The notes below the pieces were generated by a model. That model was not told where the DNA came from, ran no database searches, and was given only the letters and a program-made list of their open reading frames with translations. DNA of 64,000 nt from Dehalococcoidia bacterium (GTDB taxonomy: Bacteria > Chloroflexota > Dehalococcoidia > GIF9 > AB-539-J10): contig SKVJ01000039.1 of NCBI GenBank assembly GCA_007129495.1, positions 20,303 to 84,302 of the forward strand, in the 5' to 3' direction. Each line of letters begins with the position of its first letter. Position 1 is the first letter of the stretch. Shown piece by piece: positions 17,846 to 43,692 of this stretch. The position numbers were made by a program, and so were the translations under genes.

Positions 17846-18001
17846 TCGCTGCCATATACAACAGAACATCCTGCTGACGAGTGTAGCAGATACCACCCGT
17901 AAGCCGAAACCCACAACAACTCAGGATCTCCGCCTGTGCTTTCTGGGTTGGAATGATTGGGCTTTCATGATTTCCCGACCCTCTCAAGAAGGCCGAGTTA
18001 C

Positions 18002-18030
18002 TTGTCAAAGGGGTACGGCACATGCACAAT
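18002..18030 (+). promoter_or_regulatory. Putative sigma70 promoter of the amidase gene
   Basis: TTGTCA-17 bp-CACAAT. Confidence 0.5.
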
Positions 18031-18055
18031 TCTGCCTTGGGTCAGGAGGGAAGCT

Positions 18056-19033
18056 ATGAAGCATGTGCCACTTTCACGGAACTTCGGTAGTCCTGAGAAC
18101 TACGTGTTTGATGCGCGAACCCCGCCTGTTCTAACTGTCTCCGCTGGCGAGGAGTTCACGGCCGAGGTGCAGGATGCCTACAACGGCATGCTGAGGGAGG
18201 ACCCATGCAGACTCCAGCCTGCGGATCTCACTTTTTATGCTGAGAGACAGCCGTTCTGGTACAACCCCGTGTGTGGCCCTATCTATGTAGAGGGAGCATC
18301 TAAGGGCGACGTGCTGGCGGTGACCATACTTGCCGTTGATGAATTGTCTGCCGGCTCTATTGCCACTGTACCCCGTGTACATCATTTTGCCGGACTGAGA
18401 GGATGGGAAGAGACAGATCAGCCGTTCACCGGAATTGTGACCAACGATAAGGAAGTGTCGGAATGGCAGTACGGTGAGCAGGTGCATCGATGGCCAATGC
18501 GTCCGTTCGTGGGCACCATCGCTACAGCTCCTGAATATGAGGTGCTGTCCACACTGCCCACCAACTTCGGCAGTGTAATGGGTGCAGGTGGTAATCTTGA
18601 TTGCTCTGCGATAGGCCCTGGGGCTACCGTGTACTTGCAGTCGATGAATCTCGGCGGTCTGCTCTTCTTCGGTGACTTACACGGATCTCAGGGGGACGGA
18701 GAACTGTGCGGGGTCGCGAACGAAGTGAGCGGGCGTGTTCGTCTCGTATGCAATGTGTTGAAGCGCAAGTGGCTCCGTAACGTTCGGGTTGAGAACAGCG
18801 ATTCGCTTATCTCGCTATACTGTTATCGGCCCATGGAGGAAGCGTTTCGACAGGCTACCCGCGACCTGATTCTATGGCTTGAAGAGGATTATGGACTGAC
18901 GAGGAGGGAGGTTTATCTGCTCATTAGCATGTGTCCTGATTTCCATCTGCGTACCTATCAGATGTGCGCTGGGCTTGGACGGCTCATGACCACGGTAGGT
19001 GCCGAGTTTCCCAAATACTTGCTGGGAATGTGA
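18056..19033 (+). CDS. Acetamidase/formamidase family protein
   Basis: NPVCGPIYVEGA..GDVLAV, GGNLD, GDLHGSQGDGELCG..NE. Confidence 0.92.
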   Translation: MKHVPLSRNFGSPENYVFDARTPPVLTVSAGEEFTAEVQDAYNGMLREDPCRLQPADLTFYAERQPFWYNPVCGPIYVEGASKGDVLAVTILAVDELSAGSIATVPRVHHFAGLRGWEETDQPFTGIVTNDKEVSEWQYGEQVHRWPMRPFVGTIATAPEYEVLSTLPTNFGSVMGAGGNLDCSAIGPGATVYLQSMNLGGLLFFGDLHGSQGDGELCGVANEVSGRVRLVCNVLKRKWLRNVRVENSDSLISLYCYRPMEEAFRQATRDLILWLEEDYGLTRREVYLLISMCPDFHLRTYQMCAGLGRLMTTVGAEFPKYLLGM

Positions 19034-19184
19034 ACTGGCATCACGGTTCCGCAGATTTCGGGATATGCCGATGAGTTCGCGTGTGGTAATATGAATGCTA
19101 CATACTGATGCGGTCTATGGCTGACACTTGTGTTTGCTTATTGCATGGCAGTATTGCTGGTGGTGTCTCTTCCTTTGCCGGGCT

Positions 19185-19982
19185 ATGAATGACTCGATCG
19201 AACGCGTAGCCGACATTCTAATCCGACAGCACTACGTTGTGTGTCTGTCTGGCGCCGGTATGTCAGTTGAGAGTGGCATCCGGCCATTCAGAGGCCCTGG
19301 AGGTCTCTGGACCGAATTTGGTGAGCCGCCTCTCGATGATTACCGCCGATTCGTATCCGATCCGGTCGGGTACTGGAGAAACCTACTCCAACCGCAGGGT
19401 CACTATCTCGAGTTGTATAAGACGCTTGCGGAGGCCGTACCCCATCAGGGTTACTTCGCGCTTGCCGAACTGGAAAGACAGGGTGTAGTCAAGCATGTGA
19501 TTACGCAGAACATCGATGGCCTGCACCACAGGGCTGGAAGCAAACATGTCACCGAGATTCATGGTAACTACACGTTGTGCAGATGTGTAGAGTGCGGAAC
19601 CAGGTGCGAGCGAAGTCAAGTTGATGTGTCTACACTCCCACCTCGCTGTCCTGTATGTGCAGGCATAATGAAGAGTGATGTCGTTGTCTTCGGCGAACCT
19701 ATTCCTGAGGATGTGGGACGTGCCTGCAGCGAGCAGGTCGACCTCGCGGATTGTATGCTGCTTGTTGGCACTTCCGCCTACGTGTATCCAGCGGCTGGCT
19801 TCCCGCGTCACGTGAGCGCCCAAGGCGGGATTCTGATCGAGATGGGCCCTCAGCCCACTGAGATTACGGAGTTGTGTGATATCTCGGTCCAGGGCACCGC
19901 GGCCGAAGTGCTTCCACAACTCTATGACGCTATCGTCGAGCGTGTGAAAGAGCCAATCCAGCCAGATGGGACCGCTGAATAA
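19185..19982 (+). CDS. cobB: NAD-dependent protein deacylase, Sir2 family
   Basis: GAGMSVESGIRPFRG, TQNIDGLH, HG, two CxxC zinc motifs, VGTS..VYPAA. Confidence 0.94.
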   Translation: MNDSIERVADILIRQHYVVCLSGAGMSVESGIRPFRGPGGLWTEFGEPPLDDYRRFVSDPVGYWRNLLQPQGHYLELYKTLAEAVPHQGYFALAELERQGVVKHVITQNIDGLHHRAGSKHVTEIHGNYTLCRCVECGTRCERSQVDVSTLPPRCPVCAGIMKSDVVVFGEPIPEDVGRACSEQVDLADCMLLVGTSAYVYPAAGFPRHVSAQGGILIEMGPQPTEITELCDISVQGTAAEVLPQLYDAIVERVKEPIQPDGTAE

Positions 19983-19984
19983 TT

Positions 19985-22843
19985 ATGGCACACAGGATAG
20001 AGGTTGCGTTCAGAGCAGGTCTGGTTGATCCACGAGAGGATGGAGTTCTTGCCGGGATACGCGACTTGGGAATCACCGGGATCCAGCACGTGTCTGTAGC
20101 CGACGTGTATTGGGTTGATGCGTCCCTTCTCGAGACACAACTACGAGCTGCAGGTGCGATGCTGTTGTCGGATCCGGTTGCACAGGTATGTGGCTATGAT
20201 GGCGAACATGTGCGCGATAACTCACCATCGCTGTGGGCGCTGGAAGTTGCGTACAATCGTGGTGTCAGCGATCCACTCGAGGCTACTATTCTCAAAGGAC
20301 TGAAGGATATCGGCATCGACGATGTGCCACGAGCGCGTAGCGCGGTACGGTATGTCTTTCACGGATGGTGCAGCCAGGATGATATCGATGTCATCACGCA
20401 TCGCCTACTTCTTAATCCACTCGTACAACACGTGGTACAACCAGGAGAGGATGTATTTCCGGACGAGCCGACATATCAATTCGAATTACGTCAGGTACCT
20501 TTACTACATCTGGACGATGCCGCGCGGTCCGGAATCGCTTCGGCATATGGCTTCTCTCCGTCCGAACTCGATGCAATACATCACTACTTCGCTTCCATTG
20601 GTCGTGAACCGACAGATATCGAACTCGAAACGCTTGCGCAGTCCTGGTCGGAGCACTGTGTGCACAAAACTTTCAAGGCGAGGATCACTTTGGGTCGTGA
20701 GCGCATCGACAACCTGTTGCGCAGCACGATAATGCAGGCGACACGGGCCCTTGACAAGGAATGGTGTCTGTCCGTCTTTGAGGACAATGCCGGCGTGATT
20801 GATTTCGATGGCGAACACGCCATCTGCTTCAAGGTCGAAACCCACAATCACCCATCGGCTGTAGAACCCTATGGCGGAGCCGCAACTGGTCTCGGAGGCG
20901 TTGTTCGCGACGTTCTCGGGACCGGCCTCGGTGCCCGTCCTATTGCTAATACGGATGTGTTTTGCTTCGCTCCGCCTGATATGGCATACGATGCTCTTCC
21001 TGCTGGAGTGCTGCATCCAAGGAGAGTCTTCAAAGGCGTGAGGGCAGGTGTCGCCGACTATGGCAACAGGCTGGGCATCCCCACATTGAATGGGACTCTT
21101 CGGTTCGATCCGCGTTATATCGGAAATCCACTAGTGTTTTGCGGAACTGTCGGAATCATGCCTCGCTGGGCAGCCTATATGGGGAAACAGCAGCCGGGTG
21201 ATCTTGTAGTACTAATGGGAGGTCGCACAGGACGCGATGGTATTCACGGAGTCACGTTCGCTTCTGAGAAGCTGGATGACACCTCAGTTACCAGGTCCAG
21301 AAGCGCGGTACAGATCGGAAACGCGATTGTTGAGAAGCGCGTGATCGATGCTCTCATTCAGGCCCGTGACAAGAAGCTTTATCGGCGGATAACCGATTGT
21401 GGAGGTGGTGGCTTGTCTTCTGCGGTCGGTGAGATGGGAGCCGTGACCGGGGTGCGCGTGTATTTGGACAGGGTGCCTTTGAAGTACGCGGGTCTCTCGT
21501 ATGACGAGATATGGATATCTGAATCACAGGAACGCATGATCGTCGCCGTGCCCCCGGAGAACATCGACGAGTTAATGAAAGTCTGCAGTATCGAGAGGGT
21601 TGAAACCACCGTGATTGGTGAGTTCACGAATGACCGGCGCCTGGAGCTCGTCTATGATGGTGTACTTGTCGGCAATCTCGATATGGAGTTCTTGCACAAT
21701 GGACGCCCGCAACTGGACCTTGTTGCCACACGGCCGCATCAGGAGTGGACCGGCAAGGATCCCGCGTCCCCCGAGTCCTGCACGGCGGCGCTCTTTGCTG
21801 TTTTGTCCTCGCTCAATGTATGTAGCAAAGAGTGGGTTATTCGGCAATATGACCATGAGGTGCAGGGAGGTAGTGTCCTCAGGGCTCTTGTAGGGCCGGA
21901 GGCCGATGGTCCCGGAGATGCAGCCATCATCAAGCCGCTGCTTGAATCTGATCGCGGACTGGCGATAGCTAATGGGATCAACACTCGTTTTGGCGATATT
22001 GACGCTTACTGGATGGCGGCTTCCGCTATTGACGAAGCACTTCGCCAGGTAGTTGCTGTTGGGGCCGGCCTCGACAGGGTCGCGTTACTTGATAATTTCT
22101 GCTGGGGTCGTGCATCCGAACCGGAAAGCCTGTGGGCGCTTGTACAATCCTGTAAGGCCTGTCAGGACATGTCGTTGGCGTTTGACGTGCCCTTCATTTC
22201 CGGAAAGGACAGTCTCAACAATTTCACCGAGAGTGAGGGGAATATCATTACGATACCTCACACATTGCTGATCTCAGCCATTGCAGTGATGCCGGATGTC
22301 AATCGGGCCATCACGATGGATCTGAAGTCGGCCGGCAACTTGCTGTACGCTGTCGGCAGTACATTCGCAGAACTCGCTGGCTCGGAATACTGCAGCAATC
22401 TTCCTGACTGTGGTCGCAGAGTTCCTGAGGTTCGTTTCGAGACAGCACGTGCAACAATGCTGGCATTGGTTAATGCGATTAACGATGGACTGGTAGTTTC
22501 CTGTCACGATATGAGTGAAGGAGGGCTTGCCGTAGCCGTAGCCGAAATGGCATTTGCTGGAGCGCTCGGCGCGAACATCAGCATCTCTCGTGTGCCACTG
22601 GGTGAGAGCATTGACAGAAACGACATAATCCTTTTCTCGGAATCCAACAGTCGGTTTGTAGTCGAGGTTCCGGTAAGGCAGTCGGCCGAGTTCGAGCGGC
22701 GTATGAGTGGGGTATCCTGTGCGCAGATAGGAACCGTCATGGACGATGACAATCTTCACATATTGGGACTGGATGGTACGCCGGTAGTTTCTGCGACGTT
22801 GCGTGAATTGAAAGCCGCCTGGAAGCAGCCACTGGCCTGGTAG
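19985..22843 (+). CDS. purL: Phosphoribosylformylglycinamidine synthase PurL with N-terminal PurS-like domains
   Basis: WSEHCVHK, KVETHNHPS, DCGGGGL, SESQERM, ISGKDSL; N-terminal GLVDP...LLSDPV and GVSDP...LLLNPLV PurS-like repeats. Confidence 0.97.
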   Translation: MAHRIEVAFRAGLVDPREDGVLAGIRDLGITGIQHVSVADVYWVDASLLETQLRAAGAMLLSDPVAQVCGYDGEHVRDNSPSLWALEVAYNRGVSDPLEATILKGLKDIGIDDVPRARSAVRYVFHGWCSQDDIDVITHRLLLNPLVQHVVQPGEDVFPDEPTYQFELRQVPLLHLDDAARSGIASAYGFSPSELDAIHHYFASIGREPTDIELETLAQSWSEHCVHKTFKARITLGRERIDNLLRSTIMQATRALDKEWCLSVFEDNAGVIDFDGEHAICFKVETHNHPSAVEPYGGAATGLGGVVRDVLGTGLGARPIANTDVFCFAPPDMAYDALPAGVLHPRRVFKGVRAGVADYGNRLGIPTLNGTLRFDPRYIGNPLVFCGTVGIMPRWAAYMGKQQPGDLVVLMGGRTGRDGIHGVTFASEKLDDTSVTRSRSAVQIGNAIVEKRVIDALIQARDKKLYRRITDCGGGGLSSAVGEMGAVTGVRVYLDRVPLKYAGLSYDEIWISESQERMIVAVPPENIDELMKVCSIERVETTVIGEFTNDRRLELVYDGVLVGNLDMEFLHNGRPQLDLVATRPHQEWTGKDPASPESCTAALFAVLSSLNVCSKEWVIRQYDHEVQGGSVLRALVGPEADGPGDAAIIKPLLESDRGLAIANGINTRFGDIDAYWMAASAIDEALRQVVAVGAGLDRVALLDNFCWGRASEPESLWALVQSCKACQDMSLAFDVPFISGKDSLNNFTESEGNIITIPHTLLISAIAVMPDVNRAITMDLKSAGNLLYAVGSTFAELAGSEYCSNLPDCGRRVPEVRFETARATMLALVNAINDGLVVSCHDMSEGGLAVAVAEMAFAGALGANISISRVPLGESIDRNDIILFSESNSRFVVEVPVRQSAEFERRMSGVSCAQIGTVMDDDNLHILGLDGTPVVSATLRELKAAWKQPLAW

Positions 22844-22848
22844 ACAGA

Positions 22849-23613
22849 ATGGGCAAACCAAGAGTACTGGTTCTCAGAGCGCCGGGAACCAACTGTGATC
22901 TCGAAACGGCCTACGCGTTTGAACTTGCGGGGGCCGAATCATCGCTCGTCCACATCACTCGCATGATCTCCCATGAGGTAACTTTGGCGGAGTGTTCTAT
23001 CTTCGTTATTCCCGGCGGATTCAGTTACGGTGATGATCTTGGTGCCGGAAAGGTGATGGCAAACGAATTGGATCAACGCCTTCATGACCAGGTGGCCGAG
23101 TTTGTGGCTCGAGGTGGCCTGGTGCTTGGGATCTGCAATGGCTTTCAGGTTCTGGTAAGGGCTGGGCTGCTACCTGTCCCGTTTGGCGGACAGCGGTCAA
23201 GTCTTCTGGTCAACAGATCCGGTCGATTTGAATGCCGCTGGATTCATCTGCGCATTGCTCCGGGAAATCCGTGCGTATTCACACCTGGCGTTGTCGCTCT
23301 TGATCTTGCAGTTGCGCACGGCGAAGGCAGATTGTATGTGCCTGAATCGAGCGAATCTGATTTGACTCCTGTGCTCTACTATGCCCGACCAGATGGGCGT
23401 GAGCCTGAGTACCCCGCGGATCCGAACGGATCGTTCAAACATATTGCCGGGCTTTGTGATGAATCGGGCAGGATTTTCGGGCTGATGCCGCATCCCGAGC
23501 GGTTTGTGCGTTTGTCCCAGCACCCACGGTGGAGCACCAGGGCTGAAAGGGATGGTCCTGGTGATGGGCTGGCATTCTTCGTGAACGCAGTGAATTATGC
23601 CCGGAGTTTGTAG
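22849..23613 (+). CDS. purQ: FGAM synthase glutaminase subunit
   Basis: PGTNCD, PGGFSYGD, GICNGFQ, AHGEG, MPHPER. Confidence 0.96.
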   Translation: MGKPRVLVLRAPGTNCDLETAYAFELAGAESSLVHITRMISHEVTLAECSIFVIPGGFSYGDDLGAGKVMANELDQRLHDQVAEFVARGGLVLGICNGFQVLVRAGLLPVPFGGQRSSLLVNRSGRFECRWIHLRIAPGNPCVFTPGVVALDLAVAHGEGRLYVPESSESDLTPVLYYARPDGREPEYPADPNGSFKHIAGLCDESGRIFGLMPHPERFVRLSQHPRWSTRAERDGPGDGLAFFVNAVNYARSL

Positions 23614-23629
23614 CAGATAGTGCGGTTCG

Positions 23630-24622
23630 TCAAATGTGGCTGATATCCACCAATCGCTCGTAGTCAATCAGGCCGCTCTCAGCCGAGTTTTCTACTTCAA
23701 TCCCTGCTTCTGCTGCTGCTGCGACCGGATTGAGGCCACCGAGCAAGATCATGCCTACCTTGTTCATACCAACTTCTATCTGACATATCGGCTCACTGGT
23801 GTTGCCGAGAAGGTAGACACCATGAATGCCCGCAGCTCGAAGTTCCTCGATGCGCCTTTCGACTACGACACGCGACGGAGCGAGAATTTCGCGGAAATTG
23901 GCGAGGATGCGTCCTGTGCCGGATTCAGCAGCATTTCTGACATCTGTCATTCCGGCGCGTATGTACTGTTCCGAAGGATCAAGGGAAGTGCCATCATACT
24001 TGATAATGGCAACGAACCGCCGTGGCCTCCCGCTCTTGAGTTCCAGTACGCCCCCGAAGCGTGACTCAATGGGGACCGAGGACTTCAGCAGGACACCATT
24101 CACAACCACTCCGCACACGGTTGCCAGACCTACCATCCCTGCCGGCACCACACGCGTGCCTAATTTCTCCCCCTCGTGAGCCACTGACACCAGCCGGCTC
24201 GCACAGAGATTGCGGTCGAAGGCCGGTTGCATCTCTTGTAGCGCGTTGCGAAAGTCATCGGCGCGGAAGAGCGAAGTGTTTACGGGAACAAGTCCTGTCC
24301 TGCGGTTCGGGTCGAACGTGGTCTGGAACGCGAGGAGTTGCAGTTTCTCGATGATGAACCCCACCTGTTCCGGTGCGAGTGCATTGCGCAACTCATCGAG
24401 CCCCTCCCAGGTAATGATTCTGCCATCCCGTCCTTTGGGCTCGGTATAGCCTCGTTCGTCGGTCATCCGCAGGTGATACCGTACTGCTCTCTCGCTCAGA
24501 AAGACACCGTGTCTCTCCAGGTCACGAGAAATCGTGATGGATCCGAGGGGTTCGGCTGATTCCGACAGAACCTTCAGAATGGCGATGGTCTTTCGTTCGG
24601 TGTCTCTATCAAGGGTCTGCAT
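23630..24622 (-). CDS. nrpR: NrpR-type nitrogen repressor (wHTH plus single NRD/DUF128 domain)
   Basis: N-terminal LSERAVRYHL...GRIIT..G..EL; C-terminal ATVC...NGVLLK, YDGTSLDP, LANFRE, GGLNPVAA. Confidence 0.9.
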   Translation of the reverse strand: MQTLDRDTERKTIAILKVLSESAEPLGSITISRDLERHGVFLSERAVRYHLRMTDERGYTEPKGRDGRIITWEGLDELRNALAPEQVGFIIEKLQLLAFQTTFDPNRRTGLVPVNTSLFRADDFRNALQEMQPAFDRNLCASRLVSVAHEGEKLGTRVVPAGMVGLATVCGVVVNGVLLKSSVPIESRFGGVLELKSGRPRRFVAIIKYDGTSLDPSEQYIRAGMTDVRNAAESGTGRILANFREILAPSRVVVERRIEELRAAGIHGVYLLGNTSEPICQIEVGMNKVGMILLGGLNPVAAAAEAGIEVENSAESGLIDYERLVDISHI

Positions 24623-24689
24623 CAGTGAATTCTCGGTGCCGGCTCACCTTTATTCGTGGCCGGGTGCTCTGCAGGGACAGTATACAGTG

Positions 24690-25307
24690 TCAGGCACTGG
24701 AATCCGACGGGTGTTGACCTTGAATCCCCGCAATATGCAGGAAGTACTGGTGTACACGCAGGTCTGGCACGAACTCGGGATGAAAGCTGGTGGCGAAAAT
24801 ACGGGATTGTTGACAGGCCACAATGGTTCCGCTGTGCAGCCGGGAAATGACGCGGACCTTCGGTCCGCATGACTCGATAATCGGAGCTCGAATGAAGACT
24901 CCACGAAAGACGGAACCCGCGAGACCATCTATCATCAAGTCTTCCTCGAAGCTTTGCACCTGTCTGCCAAAGGCATTGCGAGCTACGGAGACGTCGAGAA
25001 GTCCGAGAGGAGTCATACTGTGGCTGGTGACCGTCTTGGCTAGCACGATGATGCCAGCACAGGTGCCGAATGTAGGGAGACCGTTAATGATAGCGTTCAG
25101 CAATGGCTCGCGGAGGGCAAACTCATCGATTAGCTTGAGAAGCGTCGTCGATTCTCCTCCCGGCAGAATGATTCCGTCGATGCCTTCCAGGTGTTCTGGC
25201 AGGCGCACTTCTCGTACGCTCGCCCCAAGCTGTTTCAGAGCCGCGCTGTGCTCCATGAATGACCCTTGCAGGCACAGGACACCAATCGTCGGGCGACCGG
25301 ATATCAT
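24690..25307 (-). CDS. pdxT: PLP synthase glutaminase subunit
   Basis: GVLCLQGSF.EH, LPGGEST, GTCAG, RNAFGRQVQSF, VFIRAP, FHPE; ATGA overlap with purF. Confidence 0.96.
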   Translation of the reverse strand: MISGRPTIGVLCLQGSFMEHSAALKQLGASVREVRLPEHLEGIDGIILPGGESTTLLKLIDEFALREPLLNAIINGLPTFGTCAGIIVLAKTVTSHSMTPLGLLDVSVARNAFGRQVQSFEEDLMIDGLAGSVFRGVFIRAPIIESCGPKVRVISRLHSGTIVACQQSRIFATSFHPEFVPDLRVHQYFLHIAGIQGQHPSDSSA

Positions 25308-26734
25308 GGTGCGGTCTCCAGCGCCAGCTTGCCCAGTCCCATCTGGACAGGCACCGGGTACTGGCCGGTGAAGCAGGCCGTACAAAGGCTGCTACACGGG
25401 CGTTGCAGTGCTTTCTGTAGTCCTTCAAGGCTGATGTAACCGAGAGAATCGGCCTGAACATGCTTCTGTATTTCGGCAACTGAGTAGCGGGCTGCGATAA
25501 GCTCAGATTCGGTCGGAATGTCCACGCCAAGAAAGCAGGGGTGGATCAGCGGCGGGGCACAAATTCTGAGGTGAACCTCTCGTGCACCAGCGGCTCGCAG
25601 AAGAGCGACTACGTGTGGTGTGGTCGTGCCGCGAACGATGCTGTCATCCAGCACGACAAGTCGTTTACCCGCTATCGTGCCGGAAAGTGGATTGAACTTC
25701 AATTGTACGCCGAGGTCTCTCAGGCGCTGGTCGGGAGCAATGAACGTGCGGCCAATATAACGATTCTTGAGCAGCCCTTCACAGTACGGGATGCCGGATG
25801 CATCAGCGAAACCGATAGCGGCGGGAATTGCGGAATCCGGAATGCCAAGTACGAGATCTGCGTCGACCGGGTATTCACGCCAGAGTTGCGCACCCATATC
25901 CTGTCTACTGTCATAGACGAGCCTGTTCTCAAGCGTACTGTCGGGTCGTGCGAGATAGATGTATTCGAAGGCACAGAATGCATGGCGCTGCCCCTCTCCT
26001 ATGTGCAGTCGCGTAACACCATCCGCGCCAAATGCGAGCAGCTCGCCAGGCTCAAGTTCACGTTCGAATCGTGCGCCGATATGGTCGAGGGCACATGATT
26101 CGGAAGCCACAACCGGACTCAAACCGATGTATCCCAGGCACAGAGGGCGAACCCCGTTGGGATCACGCACGGCGATAAGCCTGTCTGTCGTGAGCAGGGT
26201 GAGGGAGTAGGCGCCTATGAGACGACGGGTTGCGGAAGCGACTCGCTCCACCCAATTATGACCGGGTGTCGAAAGGATGAGGTTTGCGATCACTTCGGAA
26301 TCTGTCGTTGCACTGAACTTGAATCCCTTCTCAAGCAGTTCCTGACGAAGCTGGACGGCGTTCACAATGTTGCCGTTATGCGCCAGTGCGATCTTGCCTT
26401 CAGGACCTGATACCACTATCGGCTGAGCATTGACGCTGCTGTTCGTTCCAGTAGTTGAATAGCGGTTGTGACCAATTCCAGAGAAGCCACTCAGACGGGA
26501 GAGCGACTCTTCATCGAATACCTGTGAGACAAGCCCGATTGCTGCATGGCGCTTGAGGTCGCGTCCATTAGAGACCACAATACCGCTGCTCTCCTGGCCG
26601 CGGTGCTGTAGCGCGAATAACGCGAAGAATATCAGGCGGGCCACGTCTTCGGGTGGGGAAAAAGTGCCGAAGACAGCGCACTTGTCATGGATCATGCTTG
26701 ATACAACCTCAGTAGTCCCTGAGAGTGCTGTCAA
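25304..26734 (-). CDS. purF: Amidophosphoribosyltransferase
   Basis: Propeptide then CAVFG (Ntn Cys), LQHRGQE, GHNRYST, VVLDDSIVRGTT, Fe-S Cys; start may be ATG 26695. Confidence 0.97.
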   Translation of the reverse strand: MTALSGTTEVVSSMIHDKCAVFGTFSPPEDVARLIFFALFALQHRGQESSGIVVSNGRDLKRHAAIGLVSQVFDEESLSRLSGFSGIGHNRYSTTGTNSSVNAQPIVVSGPEGKIALAHNGNIVNAVQLRQELLEKGFKFSATTDSEVIANLILSTPGHNWVERVASATRRLIGAYSLTLLTTDRLIAVRDPNGVRPLCLGYIGLSPVVASESCALDHIGARFERELEPGELLAFGADGVTRLHIGEGQRHAFCAFEYIYLARPDSTLENRLVYDSRQDMGAQLWREYPVDADLVLGIPDSAIPAAIGFADASGIPYCEGLLKNRYIGRTFIAPDQRLRDLGVQLKFNPLSGTIAGKRLVVLDDSIVRGTTTPHVVALLRAAGAREVHLRICAPPLIHPCFLGVDIPTESELIAARYSVAEIQKHVQADSLGYISLEGLQKALQRPCSSLCTACFTGQYPVPVQMGLGKLALETAP

Positions 26735-27836
26735 CTCGGTTGCGTCTAGTTGAGTTCTCGTTCATCAAGTCCACGAACTGATGAAAGAGGTATGTGCTGT
26801 CCAGGGGCCCCGGCGTACCTTCAGCATGATACTGGATGGAGATCAGGGGATACTCCTCATGAGTGATACCCTCGACAGTGCCATCGTTCAGGTTCACATG
26901 GCTTATGGCGATGCCTTGAGGAAGGGTTTCACCAGCCACAGCGTAACCATGATTTTGAGTCGTGATATATACGCGTCCTGTGTGGACGTCACGCACTGGA
27001 TGATTCCCGCCATGGTGGCCGAACTTCAGTTTGAAGGTCTGACCGCCCAGCGCGCGTGCGATAACCTGGTGGCCGAGGCAGACACCCATCAGAGGCACAC
27101 GGCCCAGCAACTGGCGCATCACCTCCTCGAGGTCGGTCAAGTGGGCCGGATCTCCAGGTCCGGGTGACAGCAGGACACCATCGGGAGACAACTCGCGTAT
27201 GCGATCAAGGCCGGCAGAGACAGGCACAACCGTAACCCTGCAGCCAGCGGCTGTGAGGTGTCTGATGATACTTTGCTTCACACCGCAGTCAACCAGAACT
27301 ACGTGATACGCCTCGTCGGGCGTAGTGGCAGTGGCCACTCGCTCGCTGTCCGTACTCACTTCATGGGCCAGTGGCATCTGTCCGTATGCCAGCGTAGAGC
27401 GAAGTTCACGCAGGGCGTCTTCCGGCAGGAGATCAGATGTGAGGACACCCATCATGACGCCGGCGGCCCGGAGCTTACGTGTCAGAGCGCGTGTATCCAG
27501 ACCTGCGATACCGGGGATGCCGTGTGTCGACAGATAGCTATCGAGTGTTTGGACGGACTGGAAATGGCTTGGTGTTGCACAGTGCTCGCGCACCACAAGG
27601 CCACGCGCCTGGACATGAGGCGACTCGTCATCGATCGGATTGATTCCGTAGTTGCCGACAAGTGGATATGTAAGCACCAGCAACTGGCCCCTGAACGAAG
27701 GGTCCGTCAGCATCTCCTGGTAGCCTGTCATGCTTGTGTCAAAAACTACCTCGCCGTACGTGGTAGTGTCAGCTCCAAATGACTCCCCCTCGTACGTAGT
27801 ACCATCTTCGAGTATCAGGTAGGCTTTCTTAGTCAT
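26709..27836 (-). CDS. carA: Carbamoyl-phosphate synthase small (glutaminase) subunit
   Basis: GEVVFDTSMTGYQE..TDPS, LSPGPGDP, GVCLGHQ, QNHGYAV, QYHAE. Confidence 0.97.
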   Translation of the reverse strand: MTKKAYLILEDGTTYEGESFGADTTTYGEVVFDTSMTGYQEMLTDPSFRGQLLVLTYPLVGNYGINPIDDESPHVQARGLVVREHCATPSHFQSVQTLDSYLSTHGIPGIAGLDTRALTRKLRAAGVMMGVLTSDLLPEDALRELRSTLAYGQMPLAHEVSTDSERVATATTPDEAYHVVLVDCGVKQSIIRHLTAAGCRVTVVPVSAGLDRIRELSPDGVLLSPGPGDPAHLTDLEEVMRQLLGRVPLMGVCLGHQVIARALGGQTFKLKFGHHGGNHPVRDVHTGRVYITTQNHGYAVAGETLPQGIAISHVNLNDGTVEGITHEEYPLISIQYHAEGTPGPLDSTYLFHQFVDLMNENSTRRNRVDSTLRDY

Positions 27837-27880
27837 ATCGTCCACTCCTGACGGGCGGTACGTATTCAACGGTCACCGGA

Positions 27881-29638
27881 TCAACCATGGAATCTGTTGG
27901 TGATCGGAAGGCGACGGTCGCGACCGAATGCCCGAGTCGTTATTTTGATTCCCGGCGGTGCCTGGCGTCTCTTGTACTCACTGTGATCGACGAGCTGTGC
28001 GGTGCGCTCAACGATGTCCGCGTCATGGCCAAGTGCGACTATCTGTGCCACGCTTCTATCGTCTTCCACGTACAGCTTGAGGATAGGATCCAGTACTTCA
28101 TAGGGTGGAAGACTATCGCTGTCTTTTTGATTCGGTCGCAGCTCTGCCGACGGTGGCCGGCACATGACCCTAGGTGGGATGACACAATCCGGGCCCAGTG
28201 AGTTGCGATGGTGCGACAATTCGTATACAAGAGACTTGGGAACGTCCTTGAGTACGGCGAAACCTCCAGCCATGTCGCCATACAGTGTAGTGTACCCGGT
28301 GGCCATCTCACTCTTGTTACCAGTAGTTAAGACAAGCCAGCGGAACTTGTTTGAGAGAGACATCAGTATTGTTCCGCGTATACGCGCCTGAAGATTTTCC
28401 TCTGTCGAGTCTTCTTCCAGTCCTTCGAAAACCGGGCCGAGCATTTCTAGGAACGCAGTGTATGCAGGCTCCACGGGAATTGTGATTAGACGGATGTTGA
28501 GGTTATCAGCGACTGCTTGAGCGTTGTCGCTACTCTCGGAAGCTGTGAATCTGGATGGCAGGCAGACTGCGACAACATTCTCCGGTCCGAGCGCATCGCA
28601 TGCGATGCAGGCCACAAGAGACGAATCGATACCACCAGACAGCCCTATGACGACCTGGTCGAATCCGTTCTTGCGCACGTAATCTGCAGTCCCGAGCACC
28701 AGGGCGCGATATACCTCGTCGCACTTGTCGACAGGCTGAAACGTGCAGGGTTGCAGCGCAGGCTTCGCGTGGTCACCCACAGTGGCGGCGATGTCTATCT
28801 CGGTGTTATCCGTCGTGCGGCCGCGCACCAACGTCTCAGTCTTGCGCCATCTCGGGTCGTGAAGGCGGGCACGAAACACGGATTCGATCTGCACGTCGGC
28901 AACGACCAGATCTTCCTTGAACGCTTCTCCCGCAGCCAGCACTGCTCCCTGTTCATCGACGATCATACTCTCGCCGTCAAATACCAATTCGTCCTGTCCG
29001 CCAACCAGATTACACATAGCGAACACGCAGACGTTATCTCTCGCCCTGGTTGCCAGCATCTGACGACGGCTGTCGCATTTTCCGCGATGATAGGGAGATG
29101 CGCTCAGATTCACGATGATCTCCGCGCCATTCGCAGCCTGTACGCTGGCGGGTCCACCCTCGTACCAGATGTCTTCGCAGATAGTGACGCCGATGCCGAC
29201 TCCGCCAAGACGGAATACCGGACTGGCACGGCCTGCGCGGAAGTATCGGTTCTCATCAAAGACGCCGTAGTTGGGGAGGAAGACCTTATGGTAGATACCA
29301 CGGACGCCGCCATCGTAGAGAATCGCTGCCGCGTTGTATACATCGGAATCGCTGTCCACGAATCCTACTATCACGAGAGAATGGCGCGTGTGTTCAGCGA
29401 TAAGGCGAAGGGAACACTGATTCTCGTTGATGAAGCGAGGGCGTAACAACAGGTCTTCAGGCGGATACCCGCTTATGGCCAACTCGGGGAACACAATTAC
29501 ATCAGCACCTCTCGCCACCGCCTCATCAACAGATGAAATGATGCGCTCGGTGTTGCCAGCCAGGTCACCGACGGTACTGTTGATCTGCGCGAGTGCGATA
29601 CGAACAGACAGCGCTTGCTGTCGGTCGGGGTAGCTCAT
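27881..29638 (-). CDS. nadE: Glutamine-dependent NAD+ synthetase
   Basis: Nitrilase domain (FPEL, YHK.FLPNY, ICEDIW) plus GLSGGIDS, ENLQARIRG, TGNKSE; start uncertain (29638/29647/29686). Confidence 0.96.
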   Translation of the reverse strand: MSYPDRQQALSVRIALAQINSTVGDLAGNTERIISSVDEAVARGADVIVFPELAISGYPPEDLLLRPRFINENQCSLRLIAEHTRHSLVIVGFVDSDSDVYNAAAILYDGGVRGIYHKVFLPNYGVFDENRYFRAGRASPVFRLGGVGIGVTICEDIWYEGGPASVQAANGAEIIVNLSASPYHRGKCDSRRQMLATRARDNVCVFAMCNLVGGQDELVFDGESMIVDEQGAVLAAGEAFKEDLVVADVQIESVFRARLHDPRWRKTETLVRGRTTDNTEIDIAATVGDHAKPALQPCTFQPVDKCDEVYRALVLGTADYVRKNGFDQVVIGLSGGIDSSLVACIACDALGPENVVAVCLPSRFTASESSDNAQAVADNLNIRLITIPVEPAYTAFLEMLGPVFEGLEEDSTEENLQARIRGTILMSLSNKFRWLVLTTGNKSEMATGYTTLYGDMAGGFAVLKDVPKSLVYELSHHRNSLGPDCVIPPRVMCRPPSAELRPNQKDSDSLPPYEVLDPILKLYVEDDRSVAQIVALGHDADIVERTAQLVDHSEYKRRQAPPGIKITTRAFGRDRRLPITNRFHG

Positions 29639-30137
29639 TCTCTGCATCAAGCTATTCTCGCTGTTAGCTCGTGGGTGTATCCTCACCGTATATTGTAGCA
29701 GGTTGTCGTCATTACGTGTGCTATGGCGTCAGCTGGCCATCGGTGATGCCGGAAAACCACGGATCTCGACGTCCGCTTGGGTACGTATTGCTGCGAATTG
29801 TGGTCATTGCTATAGTGTGTGCTGGTTACTACAATTGTTCAACGACCCTTGGGTTTCTAATAAGAATGACACGGGTGGTTCCAGTTAAAGAACTTCGTTG
29901 TCACTCGATCTCGATAGTTGCCAGGATCCGGGCAACAGTCTTCGAAACGAGGTGTGAGTTATCCGCGCGCTGCGCTGGTCTGTTGAAGAATTGAGATCGG
30001 TTACGATACGAACTTAGAAATACTACTATGTTGATTCAGTCTTCATCTGTCGTGGTGTACTCCCCGCACCTAGTTTGAAGTGGGTGGGGATATGCCGAAG
30101 CGGCTATGTGCAGCACCAGTGAAAAGGAGCAGAGTAA

Positions 30138-31385
30138 TTGGAGAGTTCTAATCCGTTCGACATTGTGAAGCGGCAGATCGATAGGTGTGCTGAGATAATG
30201 CAGCTTGAGCCAAGCGTGACTGCAATACTCAAGTCACCCGTGCGAGAATTGCACGTCTCGATGCCTGTCCGAATGGATGATGGCACTGTCAGAGTCTTCC
30301 AGGGATTCCGTGTCCAGTACAACGACGCAAGGGGAATAACAAAGGGCGGAATACGGTTTCATCCTGACGAAACTATCGATACCGTGCGTGCTCTTGCAGC
30401 ATGGATGGTGTGGAAATGCGCTCTGGTGGATCTACCACTTGGTGGCGCCAAAGGTGGCGTGATATGCAATCCTAAGGAGATGTCCACAGGTGAACTGGAG
30501 AGGTTGAGTCGAGCCTATGTCAGAAGCGTATTCCAGTTCATCGGTCCGGAACGGGATGTTCCCGCTCCCGATGTCTACACAACGCCGCAGATCATGGCAT
30601 GGATGATGGATGAGTATTCCGTCATCGCGCAGAAGCCGCAATTTGGGGTAATTACCGGGAAGCCGTTGTCCATCGGAGGATCTCTTGGACGAGGCGACGC
30701 TACTGCCCGTGGCGGGATGTACTGTATTCGGGAGGCTGCCAAAGTATTGGGTATCGATTTGAGCAAGGCTACCGTCGCGGTACACGGCTACGGAAATGCT
30801 GGCTACCACGCCGCACGCCTGTGCCGAGATCTGTTTGGCTCCAGGATCGTGGCGGTTTGTGACAGTAAGGGCGGCGCCTGTTGCGAGGTTGGAATCGATC
30901 CCGAAGCTGCGCAGCACTGCAAGGCGTCTACCAGCACGGTATGCGACCTGCCCGAAACCGAGCCGATCTCAGCAGATGAGCTTCTCGAGATGGATGTTGA
31001 CGTACTGATTCCTGCTGCCATCGAAGGTGTTATCACTGCCAGGAATGCCGGAAGAATAAAGGCCCGAATCGTTGCTGAACTGGCGAATGGCCCGACGACG
31101 CCTGAGGCAGATGACATTCTGTTCCAGAATGGCGTGCATCTCATTCCGGACTTTCTTTGTAATGCCGGCGGCGTCACAGTGTCCTATTTCGAGATGGTGC
31201 AGAATTTCTACCAGTATCCATGGTCCGAAGCCGATGTGCATGAGCGTCTGGACAGGAAAATGACTGCTGCATACCACTCTGTGCTTAACACGAGTAGAGA
31301 ATACGAGATCGATATGCGGCAAGCTGCATACATCAGGGCTGTGGAGCGTGTTGTGGAAGTGATGAAGCTTCGCGGATGGGCGTAA
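30138..31385 (+). CDS. gdhA: Glu/Leu/Phe/Val dehydrogenase, most likely glutamate dehydrogenase
   Basis: KGGIRFHP, GGAKGG, DVPAPD, ITGKP, GYGNAG, ELANGP, NAGGVTVSYFE; TTG start with AAGGAG SD. Confidence 0.93.
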   Translation: MESSNPFDIVKRQIDRCAEIMQLEPSVTAILKSPVRELHVSMPVRMDDGTVRVFQGFRVQYNDARGITKGGIRFHPDETIDTVRALAAWMVWKCALVDLPLGGAKGGVICNPKEMSTGELERLSRAYVRSVFQFIGPERDVPAPDVYTTPQIMAWMMDEYSVIAQKPQFGVITGKPLSIGGSLGRGDATARGGMYCIREAAKVLGIDLSKATVAVHGYGNAGYHAARLCRDLFGSRIVAVCDSKGGACCEVGIDPEAAQHCKASTSTVCDLPETEPISADELLEMDVDVLIPAAIEGVITARNAGRIKARIVAELANGPTTPEADDILFQNGVHLIPDFLCNAGGVTVSYFEMVQNFYQYPWSEADVHERLDRKMTAAYHSVLNTSREYEIDMRQAAYIRAVERVVEVMKLRGWA

Positions 31386-31464
31386 GGCGCGGAGTCGCTT
31401 ATTCACATATGTGCACGAGCCGGAAATGAGAGCTCGCATCGGTGCGGGCTTGATCTTGATGATG

Positions 31465-31490
31465 AACAGGGGGCTAAGTGGCCCCCTGTT
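31465..31490. terminator. Bidirectional intrinsic terminator between gdh and glnA
   Basis: AACAGGGGGCT-AAGT-GGCCCCCTGTT hairpin between convergent genes. Confidence 0.75.
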
Positions 31491-31513
31491 TCCGGATTAC
31501 GTGTGGTTGGTGT

Positions 31514-32857
31514 CTAGAACACCGGCAAGTAGCGCTTGAGCTCGTACTCTGTGACCTGAGTGCGGTAGGCATCCCACTCGATTAGCTTGTTCTGAATGAA
31601 TGCGTTGAATACGTGATCCCCAAGGGCTTTGCGGACTACTTCGCTTCCGGCGGTAAGTTGGGTCGCCTCGTAGAGAGTTGCCGGCAGGGAGCCGATGCCC
31701 CGTCGTTCTCTCTCCTCCGGGCCCATTACATAGACATTTTCCTCAACGGGCTCCGGGCACTCATAGCCCTTCTCTATACCTTCCAGCCCTGCGGCAAGCA
31801 TGACAGAAAATGCGAGATATGGATTGCACGCAGGATCGGGAGAGCGGAGCTCGACTCGCGTCGCGTTCTCCTGCCCTGGCTTGTAACCTGGTACTCTGAT
31901 GAGGTCTGCCCTGTTTCGTCTCGCCCACGAGAGATAAACGGGCGCCTCATAACCGGGCACCAGGCGCTTGTATGAATTGACCAACTGGTTGGTGACCGCG
32001 GTGAATTCCGGGGCATGTTGGAGGAGGCCAGCAATGTACGAAAGGGCGGTTCCGGACAGGCTATACCGGCCTTCCGGATCAAAGAATGCGTTGTGACCAT
32101 CTTTGAATAGCGACTGGTGGGTATGCATCCCACTGCCGTTGATGCCGAACACCGGTTTGGGCATGAATGTCGCGTGTACACCATGGTCAAGTGCTATCTG
32201 TTTGACGACCAGCCGATATGTCATGACACTGTCAGCCATTGTGAGAGCGTCGGTGTAACGCATGTCGATCTCGTGCTGGCTAGGCGCAACTTCGTGGTGG
32301 GAATACTCGACACCTATGCCCATTTCCTCAAGTGTGAGAACAGTCTCTCTTCGCAAGTCGGTCGCCAGATCCAGTGGGGTCATATCGAAGTAGCCACCTT
32401 CGTCGAGCGGCTCGGTGCCATACTTGTCCTTGAAGTAGAAATACTCCAGTTCAGGTCCAACGTAGAATGTGAAGCCCAGGTCTGCCGCCCTTTGTAGGTT
32501 CCTCTTGAGCACATAACGTGGGTCGCCCTCGAAGGGCGTTCCCTCGGGTCGAATAACATCACAGAACATCCTCGCTACTGCGTGGTGACCTTTCGGTCTC
32601 CACGGCAATAACTGAAAAGTCTCCGGATCCGGCAGGGCCATCATGTCGCTCTCATCGATGCGGCAGAATCCCTCGATCGATGATCCGTCAAAACCCATGC
32701 CCTCTTCAAGGGCTCCCTCAAGTTCTTCGACAGTGATAGCGAAACTCTTGAGGTATCCCAGGATATCAGTGAACCATAACCGGATGAACTTGACGTCGTG
32801 CTCTTTTGCCGTCTTCAGCACGTATTCCTTGGCTTCGTCCCTTGTTCTCTTGGCCAT
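31514..32857 (-). CDS. glnA: Glutamine synthetase type I (alpha-like)
   Basis: FDGSSIEGF, HHEVAPSQHEI, FMPKP...NGSGMH, SYKRLVPGYEAP, ELRSPDP..NPYL. Confidence 0.97.
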   Translation of the reverse strand: MAKRTRDEAKEYVLKTAKEHDVKFIRLWFTDILGYLKSFAITVEELEGALEEGMGFDGSSIEGFCRIDESDMMALPDPETFQLLPWRPKGHHAVARMFCDVIRPEGTPFEGDPRYVLKRNLQRAADLGFTFYVGPELEYFYFKDKYGTEPLDEGGYFDMTPLDLATDLRRETVLTLEEMGIGVEYSHHEVAPSQHEIDMRYTDALTMADSVMTYRLVVKQIALDHGVHATFMPKPVFGINGSGMHTHQSLFKDGHNAFFDPEGRYSLSGTALSYIAGLLQHAPEFTAVTNQLVNSYKRLVPGYEAPVYLSWARRNRADLIRVPGYKPGQENATRVELRSPDPACNPYLAFSVMLAAGLEGIEKGYECPEPVEENVYVMGPEERERRGIGSLPATLYEATQLTAGSEVVRKALGDHVFNAFIQNKLIEWDAYRTQVTEYELKRYLPVF

Positions 32858-32927
32858 TTCTCCTCCTTTATCTGCTGCGCCGCTGTGACGGCTCAACGTT
32901 CGATAAGGAGAATTATCAGTGCAGAAT

Positions 32928-32965
32928 GTTTCGGGTGTGTTTCGCTGGTGTTACCGGGCCGTGAA
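32928..32965 (-). promoter_or_regulatory. GlnR-box array upstream of glnA
   Basis: Minus strand TTCAC-N6-GTAAC-N6-GAAAC-N6-GAAAC, four half-sites at exact 11-bp phase, followed by -10-like GATAAT (32912-32917). Confidence 0.8.
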
Positions 32966-32985
32966 TTGTGCGACGGGCTCAGAAA

Positions 32986-34431
32986 CTAGCCCCTGAGTTC
33001 TTCTATTAACATATTGCGCGTCATGGAGGGGTTCGCCCTGCCACGTGTGAGGCGCATTACCTGGCCTGTGAGGAATGTGAGCGACTGTGCTCTTCCAGCG
33101 CGGTAGTCCGCGACTGCTTTTGGGTTCTCGACAACTACCTGGCGAACTGCGTCCAGAATTGCATCCGAGCTGCTGATCTGTCCGAGATCCAATTCCTCGA
33201 TAATGCCTGCCGGTGGTTTGCCGGTACGATACATCTCCTCAAGAACAACTTTGGCTGCAGGGCCTCCCAAATCTCCACTTTCAATGAGTCCAACCAAAGC
33301 AGCAAGTCCTTCCGGCTGGAGGGGGCAATCGCACACCTCCACCCCGTCAGCGTTGATGAGGCGACTGACGTCGCCAAGAAGCCAATTAGCAATTGTGCGC
33401 GCCTGACCGCCGGAAGTGCGTACAACACACTGTTCAAAGAAATCGGCCATGGCACGAGAGGACACCAGAGTCAGCGCATCATGTGGAGCGATATCGTACG
33501 CTGACACGAAACGAGAACGGCGGACATCGGGAAGTTCGGGCATTCGATCCTCGACTTCAGTTATCCAGGACTGATCGAGCACCAGTGGAGGCAGGTCTGG
33601 CTCGGGGAAGTAGCGGTAGTCCTCGGCGAACTCCTTGGTCCGTTGCAGTACCGTGACGCCCTCCGCTTCCAGCCAGCCTCGAGTCTCCTGCCGCAGGCTT
33701 CCGCCGGTGCTCAGGAGATCCGCCTGGCGCTGCTGCTCGTACTTGAGGGCACGATACACGCTCCGGAAGCTATTCATATTCTTCACCTCGATCTTGGTGC
33801 CGAAGTCAGTCGACCCGATCGGGCGCAGGCTGATATTCGCATCGCAGCGAAAGCTGCCCTCCTCCATGTTGCCGGTGGAAACTCCAAGGTATCTCAAGAG
33901 GCCTCTCAGTCGCACCAGATACTCTCGGGCTTCCTCAGGCGACTGCAAATTGGGGTCACTGACGGTTTCCATGAGAGGGACACTGGACCGGTTGATATCA
34001 ACGAGGCTGTGGTCTTCCATATGAAACACTTTCGCAACATCTTCCTCAAGGTGCACGCGTGTAATTCCGACTCGCTTGGACTTGCCACCTACCTCGATAT
34101 CGAGCCATCCGTTGCGTCCGATCGGGGCATCGTACTGTGAGATCTGATATCCCTTCATGAGGTCCGGGTAGAAATAGTTCTTGCGGTCGAAACGGGTGTG
34201 TAGTGGCAAATCGCAGTGCAATGCGAGCGCGGTGGTGATGACAAACTCGATGGCTTGCCGATTTGCGACAGGCAAAGTGCCCGGCATTCCCATGCAGATC
34301 GGACATACCCGCGTATTAGGGGTGGAATCCTGGTAGTCCGCGCCACACCCGCAGAACATCTTCGTACGTGTGAGTAACTGCGCGTGGACTTCAAGTCCGA
34401 TGACTGTTTCGTAAGAATCAAGATTAGCCAT
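32986..34431 (-). CDS. gatB: Asp/Glu-tRNA amidotransferase subunit B
   Basis: IGLEVHAQL, FDRKNYFYPDL.KGYQISQ, HLEED, RCDANIS, DYRYFPEPDL. Confidence 0.97.
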   Translation of the reverse strand: MANLDSYETVIGLEVHAQLLTRTKMFCGCGADYQDSTPNTRVCPICMGMPGTLPVANRQAIEFVITTALALHCDLPLHTRFDRKNYFYPDLMKGYQISQYDAPIGRNGWLDIEVGGKSKRVGITRVHLEEDVAKVFHMEDHSLVDINRSSVPLMETVSDPNLQSPEEAREYLVRLRGLLRYLGVSTGNMEEGSFRCDANISLRPIGSTDFGTKIEVKNMNSFRSVYRALKYEQQRQADLLSTGGSLRQETRGWLEAEGVTVLQRTKEFAEDYRYFPEPDLPPLVLDQSWITEVEDRMPELPDVRRSRFVSAYDIAPHDALTLVSSRAMADFFEQCVVRTSGGQARTIANWLLGDVSRLINADGVEVCDCPLQPEGLAALVGLIESGDLGGPAAKVVLEEMYRTGKPPAGIIEELDLGQISSSDAILDAVRQVVVENPKAVADYRAGRAQSLTFLTGQVMRLTRGRANPSMTRNMLIEELRG

Positions 34432-34724
34432 TCACTCCTCCGGAGACAAGGCGTGGAAAGCCTGCCACGGTGCACTCATAGTCTGTGTGAAAGCTATTCA
34501 CCAGCGCCAACTGAATGTAGTATCGTCTCAAACCGTCGACCACAGATGATCTGCAGGCAACCTCATGCATTGAGCGGTTCCCAGCATCAGCGCTGACACG
34601 GGTCTTAGGTCAAGAAACAATAATAACACACGTGCCACAACCTGTCGGCTGAGCCCTGATGGTGCGTAGAGGAATCGATTACAATGCTCCGCCAGCGCGG
34701 TTGATTCATCGGCAGTTGCCGATC

Positions 34725-35396: not shown

Positions 35397-35408
35397 TTGC
35401 GTCCTGCG

Positions 35409-36176: not shown

Positions 36177-36179
36177 ATT

Positions 36180-37682: not shown

Positions 37683-37692
37683 GATGTTATTC

Positions 37693-39598: not shown

Positions 39599-39637
39599 TT
39601 CGTCACCGCTTCCTGCTGATAATGCGCCGACATCTCT

Positions 39638-40909: not shown

Positions 40910-40933
40910 GTAGATGTTCTCCCCCGGTATATA

Positions 40934-41545: not shown

Positions 41546-41567
41546 GATGCTGATACCGCTCCTCTTG

Positions 41568-41939: not shown

Positions 41940-42029
41940 TACTCTTCCTCCTTGGTCGCAAGAATCTCCGGCAGAATGAGTTCATCGTGCGAATCGGGTG
42001 AACATCACGCGATTCCACGTCGCTCCTTC

Positions 42030-43622: not shown

Positions 43623-43692
43623 GGCCTATCCTCCTCAGATGTTCAAGAGAGTTTCTATCTGCTGGCTCACATGTGCTCTAGTTGCAGTGCAG

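Follow-up and report, generated by a model that had tools for sequence, protein, structure and literature searches.

Why should the glutamine-hydrolysing enzymes of different pathways be encoded side by side, when two of them are only one half of an enzyme whose other half lies elsewhere? The question is raised by the gene array nadE-carA-purF-pdxT-nrpR of a Dehalococcoidia bacterium, which we studied within a window of 64,000 nucleotides. By the window we mean the whole stretch of DNA analysed, C2:20303-84302 of genome G000, a metagenome-assembled genome (MAG) of 2.1 Mb in 75 contigs that is 93.8% complete. An earlier sequence-only reading had described the array as one apparent operon of glutaminases with no partner subunits. 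Our analysis places it inside a glutamine-centred supercluster of approximately 29 kb (19985-49253), a larger pattern that extends beyond the five genes of that reading and in which nearly all genes concern glutamine or glutamate. We suggest, with a probability of roughly 0.55, that this arrangement was selected for common control by nitrogen status, with the capacity for using glutamine set together with its supply.

The five genes indeed share one strand, the minus strand, and all junctions are as first described. Between the nadE stop (27881) and the carA ATG (27836) lies a gap of 44 bp, with AGGAG ahead of carA. The carA stop (26709) is separated from the purF ATG (26695) by 13 bp, and an alternative TTG start of purF at 26734 would produce an overlap with carA. 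The purF TGA and the pdxT ATG overlap by 4 bp in ATGA (25307-25304), and 67 bp separate the pdxT stop (24690) from the nrpR ATG (24622). Terminator-like sites were no more numerous than expected from shuffled sequences. A single conserved promoter was recognized upstream of nadE, an extended -10 box whose 12-mer is identical in 12 of 13 genomes of the genus; the remaining one reads ACCTGTTACAAT. The flanks of this box could not be aligned, and it is kept whether the upstream gene is glnA or the divergent gdhA. A conserved ACC precedes the extended -10. Because half of the 12 genus loci have a -10-like GTATACT at the pdxT stop (6 with it, 6 without), nrpR may also be transcribed from its own promoter.

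Conservation was assessed in 40 relatives: 15 congeners, 9 further members of the family and 16 further members of the order. Of the congeners, 11 of 15 have the complete five-gene order; in 3 others contig ends interrupt it but what remains agrees, and the last genome, which is 72% complete, was uninformative. The proteins of the operon are 58-85% identical among congeners. We regard the operon structure as secure and conserved across the genus, and a single transcript is predicted from it.

Protein families were called with Pfam and NCBIfam profile scans, using the curated NCBIfam cut-offs, and catalytic residues were judged by alignment to solved homologues. NadE (NF010588, 739 bits against a cut-off of 479; Pfam CN_hydrolase and NAD_synthase) retains the E-K-C residues of a nitrilase-type glutaminase, as its PEL, K and CED align with those of 4f4h_A. 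In CarA (TIGR01368, 467 bits, cut-off 307; PF00988, the carbamoyl-phosphate synthetase small chain, and PF00117, the class I glutamine amidotransferase) the Cys-His-Glu triad is intact, with GVCLGHQ and H-A-E against GICLGHQ and H-P-E of E. coli CarA 1cs0_B. The PurF encoded here, copy A, scored 504 bits (TIGR01134, cut-off 350) and combines an N-terminal nucleophile cysteine with a phosphoribosyltransferase domain. Its Cys6 aligns with Cys1 of mature B. subtilis PurF 1ao0_A after the propeptide MIHDK, and its cysteine positions are of the Fe-S type in the same alignment, the C-terminal C-x-x-C being kept. PdxT is a SNO-family glutaminase (TIGR03800, 219 bits, cut-off 106) whose GTCAG and FHPE motifs align with 2ywd_A. 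NrpR matched PF08461 (HTH_12, 63.8 bits) and PF01995 (NRD1_2, 242 bits) and gave no hit in the NCBIfam scan. Thus, the intact active sites noticed in carA, pdxT, purF and nadE from the letters alone were borne out.

The claim that the glutaminases have no partner subunits requires division. It holds for CarA and PdxT, which are unlinked from their partners, but not for NadE and PurF, which are complete two-domain enzymes with the synthase domain in the same chain. Therefore, the orphaned glutaminases are CarA and PdxT only. The same division applies to the proposal that glutaminases are encoded and expressed apart from their synthases: carA and pdxT do lie apart from carB and pdxS, but NadE and PurF do not fit it, and purF copy A is an extra paralogue, since G000 has a second purF in a purF-purM-purH operon on C63 (494 bits, 59% identity to copy A).

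As the sequence-only reading had it, carB and pdxS are absent from the window. A whole-genome search located one carB in G000, on contig C18 in the order pyrR-pyrB-(1.3-kb gap)-carB-pyrK, and one pdxS, on contig C11, surrounded by fatty-acid and nucleotide genes and with no pdxT beside it. Whole-genome hidden Markov model (HMM) searches recovered one copy each of carA and pdxT, both in the window. Canonical carAB or pdxST pairs, which could have undone the idea of separation, are not found elsewhere in G000: its one carA and one pdxT both lie apart from carB and pdxS, themselves single.

The gap between pyrB and carB on C18 (C18:2243-3536, locus L009) is 1.3 kb long and occupies the slot that holds carA in relatives. 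Its plus strand contains no open reading frame (ORF) of 70 or more amino acids save one of 75, and its sole long ORF is an antisense-looking frame of 257 amino acids without family hits. A decayed carA in this gap was considered and rejected: the best hit had an E-value of 0.16 on the wrong strand, and an HMM search also found none.

Among genera other than that of G000, carA kept its pyrimidine context in 18 of 22 loci (from 21 genomes), in the order pyrR-pyrB-carA-carB-pyrK. The split of carA from carB is thus a derived state of the genus, where the two genes lie on separate contigs in all 13 genomes in which both were detected. The four remaining loci place carA among nitrogen genes: two genomes carry glnA-(small gene)-nadE-carA-carB-nrpR, one nrpR-hisF-(Glu_synthase-like)-carA, and in one a second carA is flanked by a gltB domain gene and a GlnR-like gene. 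Outside Dehalococcoidia, unlinked carA and carB occur too, for instance in Lactococcus lactis.

A similar picture was observed for pdxT. In 14 of 14 congeners it belongs to the operon and pdxS is found on a different contig. The congener G003 additionally carries an adjacent pdxS-pdxT pair (C3:701513-702956, locus L081), about 32 kb from its nadE operon and on the 750-kb contig that also contains the operon. Among the 25 relatives from other genera, pdxT adjoins pdxS in 9, is unlinked in 11 and was not found in 5 although pdxS is present. All 11 unlinked copies stand beside glnA or among gltB, hisHF and nadE genes, in several gene orders. Likewise, nrpR was next to glutamine or glutamate genes in 13 of the 13 loci found with nrpR. 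Taken together, glutamine-using genes tend throughout the order to neighbour glnA, gltB and nitrogen regulators, even where this splits heteromeric enzymes.

Duplicated enzymes of G000 were compared in the same way. Two copies of purF are present in G000 and in 14 of its 15 congeners, and a single one in 25 of 25 other relatives. In a maximum-likelihood tree (three truncated rows were dropped by the program), the copies from the nadE operon form their own clade (100/100), and the purF-purM copies group with those of single-copy relatives. The pyrG duplication (764 bits in the window vs 653 bits on C74) is also confined to the genus; in this case the block copy is the one similar to the family model and to the single-copy relatives. 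Of the two hisF copies, the one in the window (373 bits) lies between two glutamate-synthase domain genes, at a distance of 2.5 kb from the only hisH. The other (329 bits) is isolated on contig C30, where its neighbours are ychF and an aminotransferase gene.

The coordinates of the operon, its surroundings and the predicted control elements are collected in Table 1.

Table 1. Genes and predicted control elements in and near the glutamine-centred block, in window coordinates
Feature	Position	Strand	Assignment or remark
purS-purL fusion + purQ	19985-23613	+	TIGR01736 614 bits; PurQ GATase_5 252 bits
nrpR	23630-24622	-	winged helix + one NRD1/2 domain
-10-like box TGTATACT	24679-24686	-	pdxT-nrpR gap; candidate nrpR promoter
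pdxT	24690-25307	-	pyridoxal 5'-phosphate (PLP) synthase glutaminase subunit
purF copy A	25304-26695	-	amidophosphoribosyltransferase, 5-residue propeptide
carA	26709-27836	-	carbamoyl-phosphate synthetase glutaminase (small) subunit
nadE	27881-29647	-	glutamine-dependent NAD+ synthetase; alternative start 29638
P_nadE box ACCTGCTACAAT	29692-29703	-	predicted extended -10 (TGnTAnAAT) + upstream ACC, ~45-55 nt before nadE start
gdhA	30138-31385	+	glutamate dehydrogenase; Pfam ELFV_dehydrog; divergent from nadE
glnA	31514-32896	-	type I glutamine synthetase; TIGR00653 539 bits
GTAAC-n6-GAAAC-n6-GAAAC triple direct repeat	32928-32954	-	upstream of glnA; GlnR-box arrangement
gatB	32986-34431	-	NF004012 630 bits
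GlnR-like OmpR-family regulator	34725-35396	-	Trans_reg_C 96.7 bits
GXGXG gene	35409-36176	-	split glutamate-synthase block
FMN+Fer4 gene	36180-37853	-	split glutamate-synthase block
hisF copy	37693-38475	-	split glutamate-synthase block
GATase_2 gene	38450-39598	-	split glutamate-synthase block
flavin reductase	39638-40909	-	split glutamate-synthase block
hisH	40934-41545	-	split glutamate-synthase block; only copy in G000
123-aa gene of unassigned family	between hisH and Glu_synthase-like gene	-	split glutamate-synthase block
Glu_synthase-like 530-aa gene	42030-43622	-	weak Glu_synthase match 54 bits, no NCBIfam hit
ferredoxin	43693-44172	-	split glutamate-synthase block
pyrG	44441-46069	+	CTP synthase; Pfam CTP_synth_N + GATase
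gatC-gatA	47434-49253	-	Pfam Amidase 503 bits, GatC 70.5 bits
trpS	within 19985-49253		listed with pyrG and gatC-gatA
gltX	53318-54799		beyond the block

Pfam and NCBIfam searches recovered 14 glutamine amidotransferase genes in G000, and 9 of them fall within 19985-48897: purQ, pdxT, purF-A, carA, nadE, the gltB glutaminase, hisH, pyrG and gatA. The other five are trpG (beside trpE), guaA, purF-B, the second pyrG and glmS. Counted as transcription units, as we defined them, 5 of 10 lie within 29 kb, which occurred in 36 of 1,000,000 random placements. The glutamate synthase gene gltB is split into three domain genes, and the whole block that contains them spans 35409-44172 on the minus strand. 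On the other side of the operon, purS-purL and purQ converge on nrpR, a synteny kept in the genus, and the purQ glutaminase of formylglycinamidine ribonucleotide synthase still adjoins its partner purSL. Among the genus loci aligned, 5 contain gdhA; in loci without it glnA abuts nadE.

Several smaller features of the block deserve mention. A formamidase-like gene and a gene for a Sir2-type NAD-dependent deacylase lie immediately ahead of purS-purL (17957-22843, plus strand), in most genomes of the genus. Upstream of gatB the window has a non-coding stretch of 293 bp (34432-34724); at the same slot, several congeners (loci L043, L053, L058, L059 and L067) have a coding sequence whose ending (…GDGKIFV…) was judged by eye to be PII-like. 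G000 itself has one PII gene, located on contig C48. The 530-aa Glu_synthase-like gene is the commonest nrpR neighbour in distant relatives (L020, L021, L023, L025, G016, G021, G028), which include one MAG labelled Spirochaetales.

The block encodes two putative nitrogen regulators. For the one at 34725-35396, the best solved relatives are 8hig, 8hih and 8hml (8hig with an E-value of 2.8e-38 over residues 24-220), and the next family reached only 2.9e-23. Of these, 8HIH and 8HML are entries for GlnR. PMC10235972 gives the a-site/b-site consensus of actinobacterial GlnR boxes as gTnAc-n6-GaAAC, which the GTAAC-n6-GAAAC array upstream of glnA fits. The triple repeat was present in 10 of the 10 genus loci aligned and is the only triple site in the window. 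Two-site matches numbered 44 genome-wide against approximately 55 by estimated chance, and the convincing triple site is at glnA only. The protein thus combines full-length similarity to GlnR with predicted boxes at the promoter of a nitrogen-assimilation gene, a pattern that resembles GlnR-type control of glnA, here outside Actinobacteria. As in the actinobacterial GlnR regulon, a GlnR relative is encoded and the glnA promoter carries GlnR-type boxes; the differences are that the host belongs to Chloroflexota and that boxes are predicted at glnA but not at the nadE operon.

The second regulator, NrpR, is best known from methanogens, where, according to PMC9765008, it represses nif and glnA in a 2-oxoglutarate-dependent manner and its levels are reported to be constant across nitrogen supply. 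The protein studied here shares HTH_12 and NRD1_2 with the euryarchaeal NrpR of Methanococcus maripaludis and Methanosarcina mazei, and it is likewise encoded among nitrogen-assimilation genes, glnA included. It differs in that the host is bacterial, that the window lacks the archaeal operator GGAA-N6-TTCC, and that nrpR stands at the 3' end of an operon whose other members are glutamine-consuming biosynthetic enzymes, not nif or amt. The window carries ruvA, uvrB, hrcA-grpE-dnaK and lspA, that is, a bacterial gene content, and the nearest relatives of its nrpR are in MAGs labelled Dehalococcoidia or Dehalococcoidales.

One further sequence may be a candidate bacterial NrpR operator, though as a lead only. 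It is a 20-bp near-palindrome, TACGGTAACCGGTTGCCGTA, at 44194-44213, just 3' of a promoter-like TTGACA-N17 site of the ferredoxin/Glu_synthase-like operon. At three distant loci a related motif is found at the nrpR promoter: in L020 and L021 it reads ACGGTTRCCGGT and directly follows the TATAAT box, and L023 has a variant of it. An attempt to define a regulon by the palindrome was abandoned: its short versions occur too often in the genome, and 1.29 Mb of loci yielded no other copy at a promoter. Known RNA control elements were likewise set aside, the Rfam matches of the window being two tRNAs only, as was a conserved leader hairpin after the nadE promoter (RNAalifold returned 0 pairs, and 13 single-sequence folds gave z-scores of -2.3 to +3.1).

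These observations allow us to propose how the locus might work. A near-invariant extended -10 would drive nadE-carA-purF-pdxT, with nrpR appended at the 3' end and, in about half of the species, provided with its own -10-like box. The operon collects the glutamine-hydrolysing step of four unrelated pathways, namely those to nicotinamide adenine dinucleotide (NAD), carbamoyl phosphate, purines and PLP. The block as a whole unites the makers and recyclers of glutamine and glutamate (glnA, gdhA and the split gltB) with most of the spenders of amide nitrogen (purLQ, nadE, carA, purF, pdxT, hisHF, pyrG and gatCAB) and with two nitrogen regulators, NrpR of archaeal and GlnR of actinobacterial type. 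The capacity to draw on glutamine would then be set jointly with glutamine supply and nitrogen status, and NrpR, which in methanogens releases DNA as 2-oxoglutarate rises, would be the likely sensor. By moving out of the pyr and pdxST operons, carA and pdxT would have placed the glutaminase halves on a nitrogen logic, and carB and pdxS would follow the logic of their pathways.

We infer nitrogen control of the operon from its neighbourhood only, and a number of results weigh against it. The exact five-gene order is limited to one genus, and therefore shared descent accounts for much of its conservation. The nadE promoter resembles a plain strong extended -10, and no operator that would tie it to either regulator was found. 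GlnR boxes, seen at glnA, are lacking at the nadE promoter; GGAA-N6-TTCC occurs 0 times in the window, and its 45 occurrences genome-wide, vs approximately 31 expected, were judged to be no excess. In 23400-35600 no Rfam element was detected at E<=1. Finally, the estimated contamination of G000 is 5%, and every genome compared is a MAG.

The RNA data add to these doubts. The stretch was found in runs labelled as salt lake, soda lake or alkali sediment metagenomes, and one of these, X8, is a metatranscriptome. In X8, represented by contigs of one run whose depth cannot rank genes, glnA reached a depth of 113-129, nadE 4.6-9.5, carA about 4.4, and purF and pdxT less than 2; nrpR had no cover (23476-24803). 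The operon thus stayed at or below 9.5 vs 113-129 for glnA, where one contig of depth 113 spans 31500-32894, nearly exactly the glnA frame, with neighbours at 10 or less. In the DNA run from that sample the depth is uniform at approximately 11.5. No junction-bridging RNA was present among the 8 X8 pieces listed, 39 further pieces being unlisted. As support for one transcript, contigs without a listed bridging piece are uninformative either way. At most, nadE and carA sequences were present in the RNA library, and glnA behaves differently.

Much of this could also be explained if the operon were a constitutive housekeeping unit that arose by rearrangement or transfer in the ancestor of the genus and was kept by descent, without nitrogen control. 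The confinement of the exact order to one genus, a plain promoter with no recognisable operator and an RNA depth unlike that of glnA all agree with such an origin. So do the trees. In FastTree reconstructions (midpoint-rooted, one row misplaced with zero length), the carA and pdxT of the genus form their own long-branched clades. Across all trees, the clades of carA, purF copy A and pdxT stand on long branches apart from sister genera, as import or fast change after a single event would have it. The long carA and pdxT branches fit either import or fast change after relocation. What a historical accident explains poorly is that other genera and families reach like neighbourhoods in different orders, as in all unlinked cases of pdxT and at the four exceptional carA loci, that nrpR is embedded in glutamine-gene clusters at every locus found, and that the observed clustering of amidotransferase units is rare by chance. 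Because lineages arrive at similar neighbourhoods through different gene orders, we favour selection for common control and consider an accident rather unlikely.

A more specific proposal, built on the switch between free ammonia and glutamine raised by the sequence-only reading, is that production of CarA and PdxT is limited to times of scarce ammonia, so that CarB and PdxS would run alone on free ammonia when it is plentiful. This switch is a special case of common control and does not compete with it. Use of ammonia by CarB and PdxS is possible in vitro, and in the settings named by the labels of all runs that contain the stretch (salt lake, soda lake or alkali sediment) much of the ammonia is unprotonated. 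The separation of carA and pdxT from carB and pdxS without second copies and the encoding of a 2-oxoglutarate-type regulator in the operon are also in its favour. Moreover, because 5 of 25 relatives outside the genus (G020, G022, G023, G028 and G038, 91-98% complete) have pdxS but no pdxT detectable at E<=1e-25, PdxS may work without a glutaminase in this lineage, although the hint is weak. Withholding a subunit, however, makes little sense for nadE and the extra purF, which encode complete enzymes, and no operator was found at the nadE promoter. The presence of nadE and carA RNA contigs in a sample with far higher glnA gives no on/off picture, and among relatives there is no case of carB without carA, since the four genomes lacking carA have carB cut by a contig end or missing. 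We therefore regard the switch as improbable. Equally doubtful is the boldest version, by which the chromosome of this lineage would be arranged around the amide nitrogen of glutamine and a supercluster under two borrowed regulators would set glutaminase capacity for at least seven pathways through detached CarA, PdxT and HisH together with nitrogen-specific purF, pyrG and hisF isoenzymes, and biosynthesis could shift between glutamine and free ammonia according to 2-oxoglutarate.

The locus can be compared with known arrangements. In comparison with canonical carAB and pdxST, the proteins are the same, their catalytic residues are intact and relatives within the order keep both pairings, but here the two glutaminase subunits are encoded together, away from their partners. 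A likeness also exists to the 'uber-operons' reportedly described by Lathe, Snel and Bork in 2000 as neighbourhoods conserved above the operon level, in that the gene set stays together across lineages and its internal order is reshuffled. The difference lies in the theme, which is not one pathway or complex but a shared co-substrate, the amide nitrogen of glutamine, used in at least seven pathways. Searches of open-access full texts, supplements excluded, retrieved no published account of such an arrangement. All proteins belong to known families; the novelty lies in the organising principle and in NrpR- and GlnR-type regulators occurring together in Chloroflexota.

The usual reading of an operon is as the unit of a single pathway or complex. 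In the operon described here, the glutaminase halves of two obligate heteromeric enzymes have been split off and grouped with other users of glutamine, close to nitrogen regulators and the genes for glutamine synthetase and glutamate synthase. Similar grouping is seen, in varying gene orders, elsewhere in this order of uncultured bacteria, which suggests that gene order is built around a shared substrate, glutamine. If the grouping reflects control, it would provide a testable example of regulation by a shared co-substrate and a natural system for studying when amidotransferase synthases run on ammonia alone. It would also extend NrpR- and GlnR-type control into Chloroflexota.

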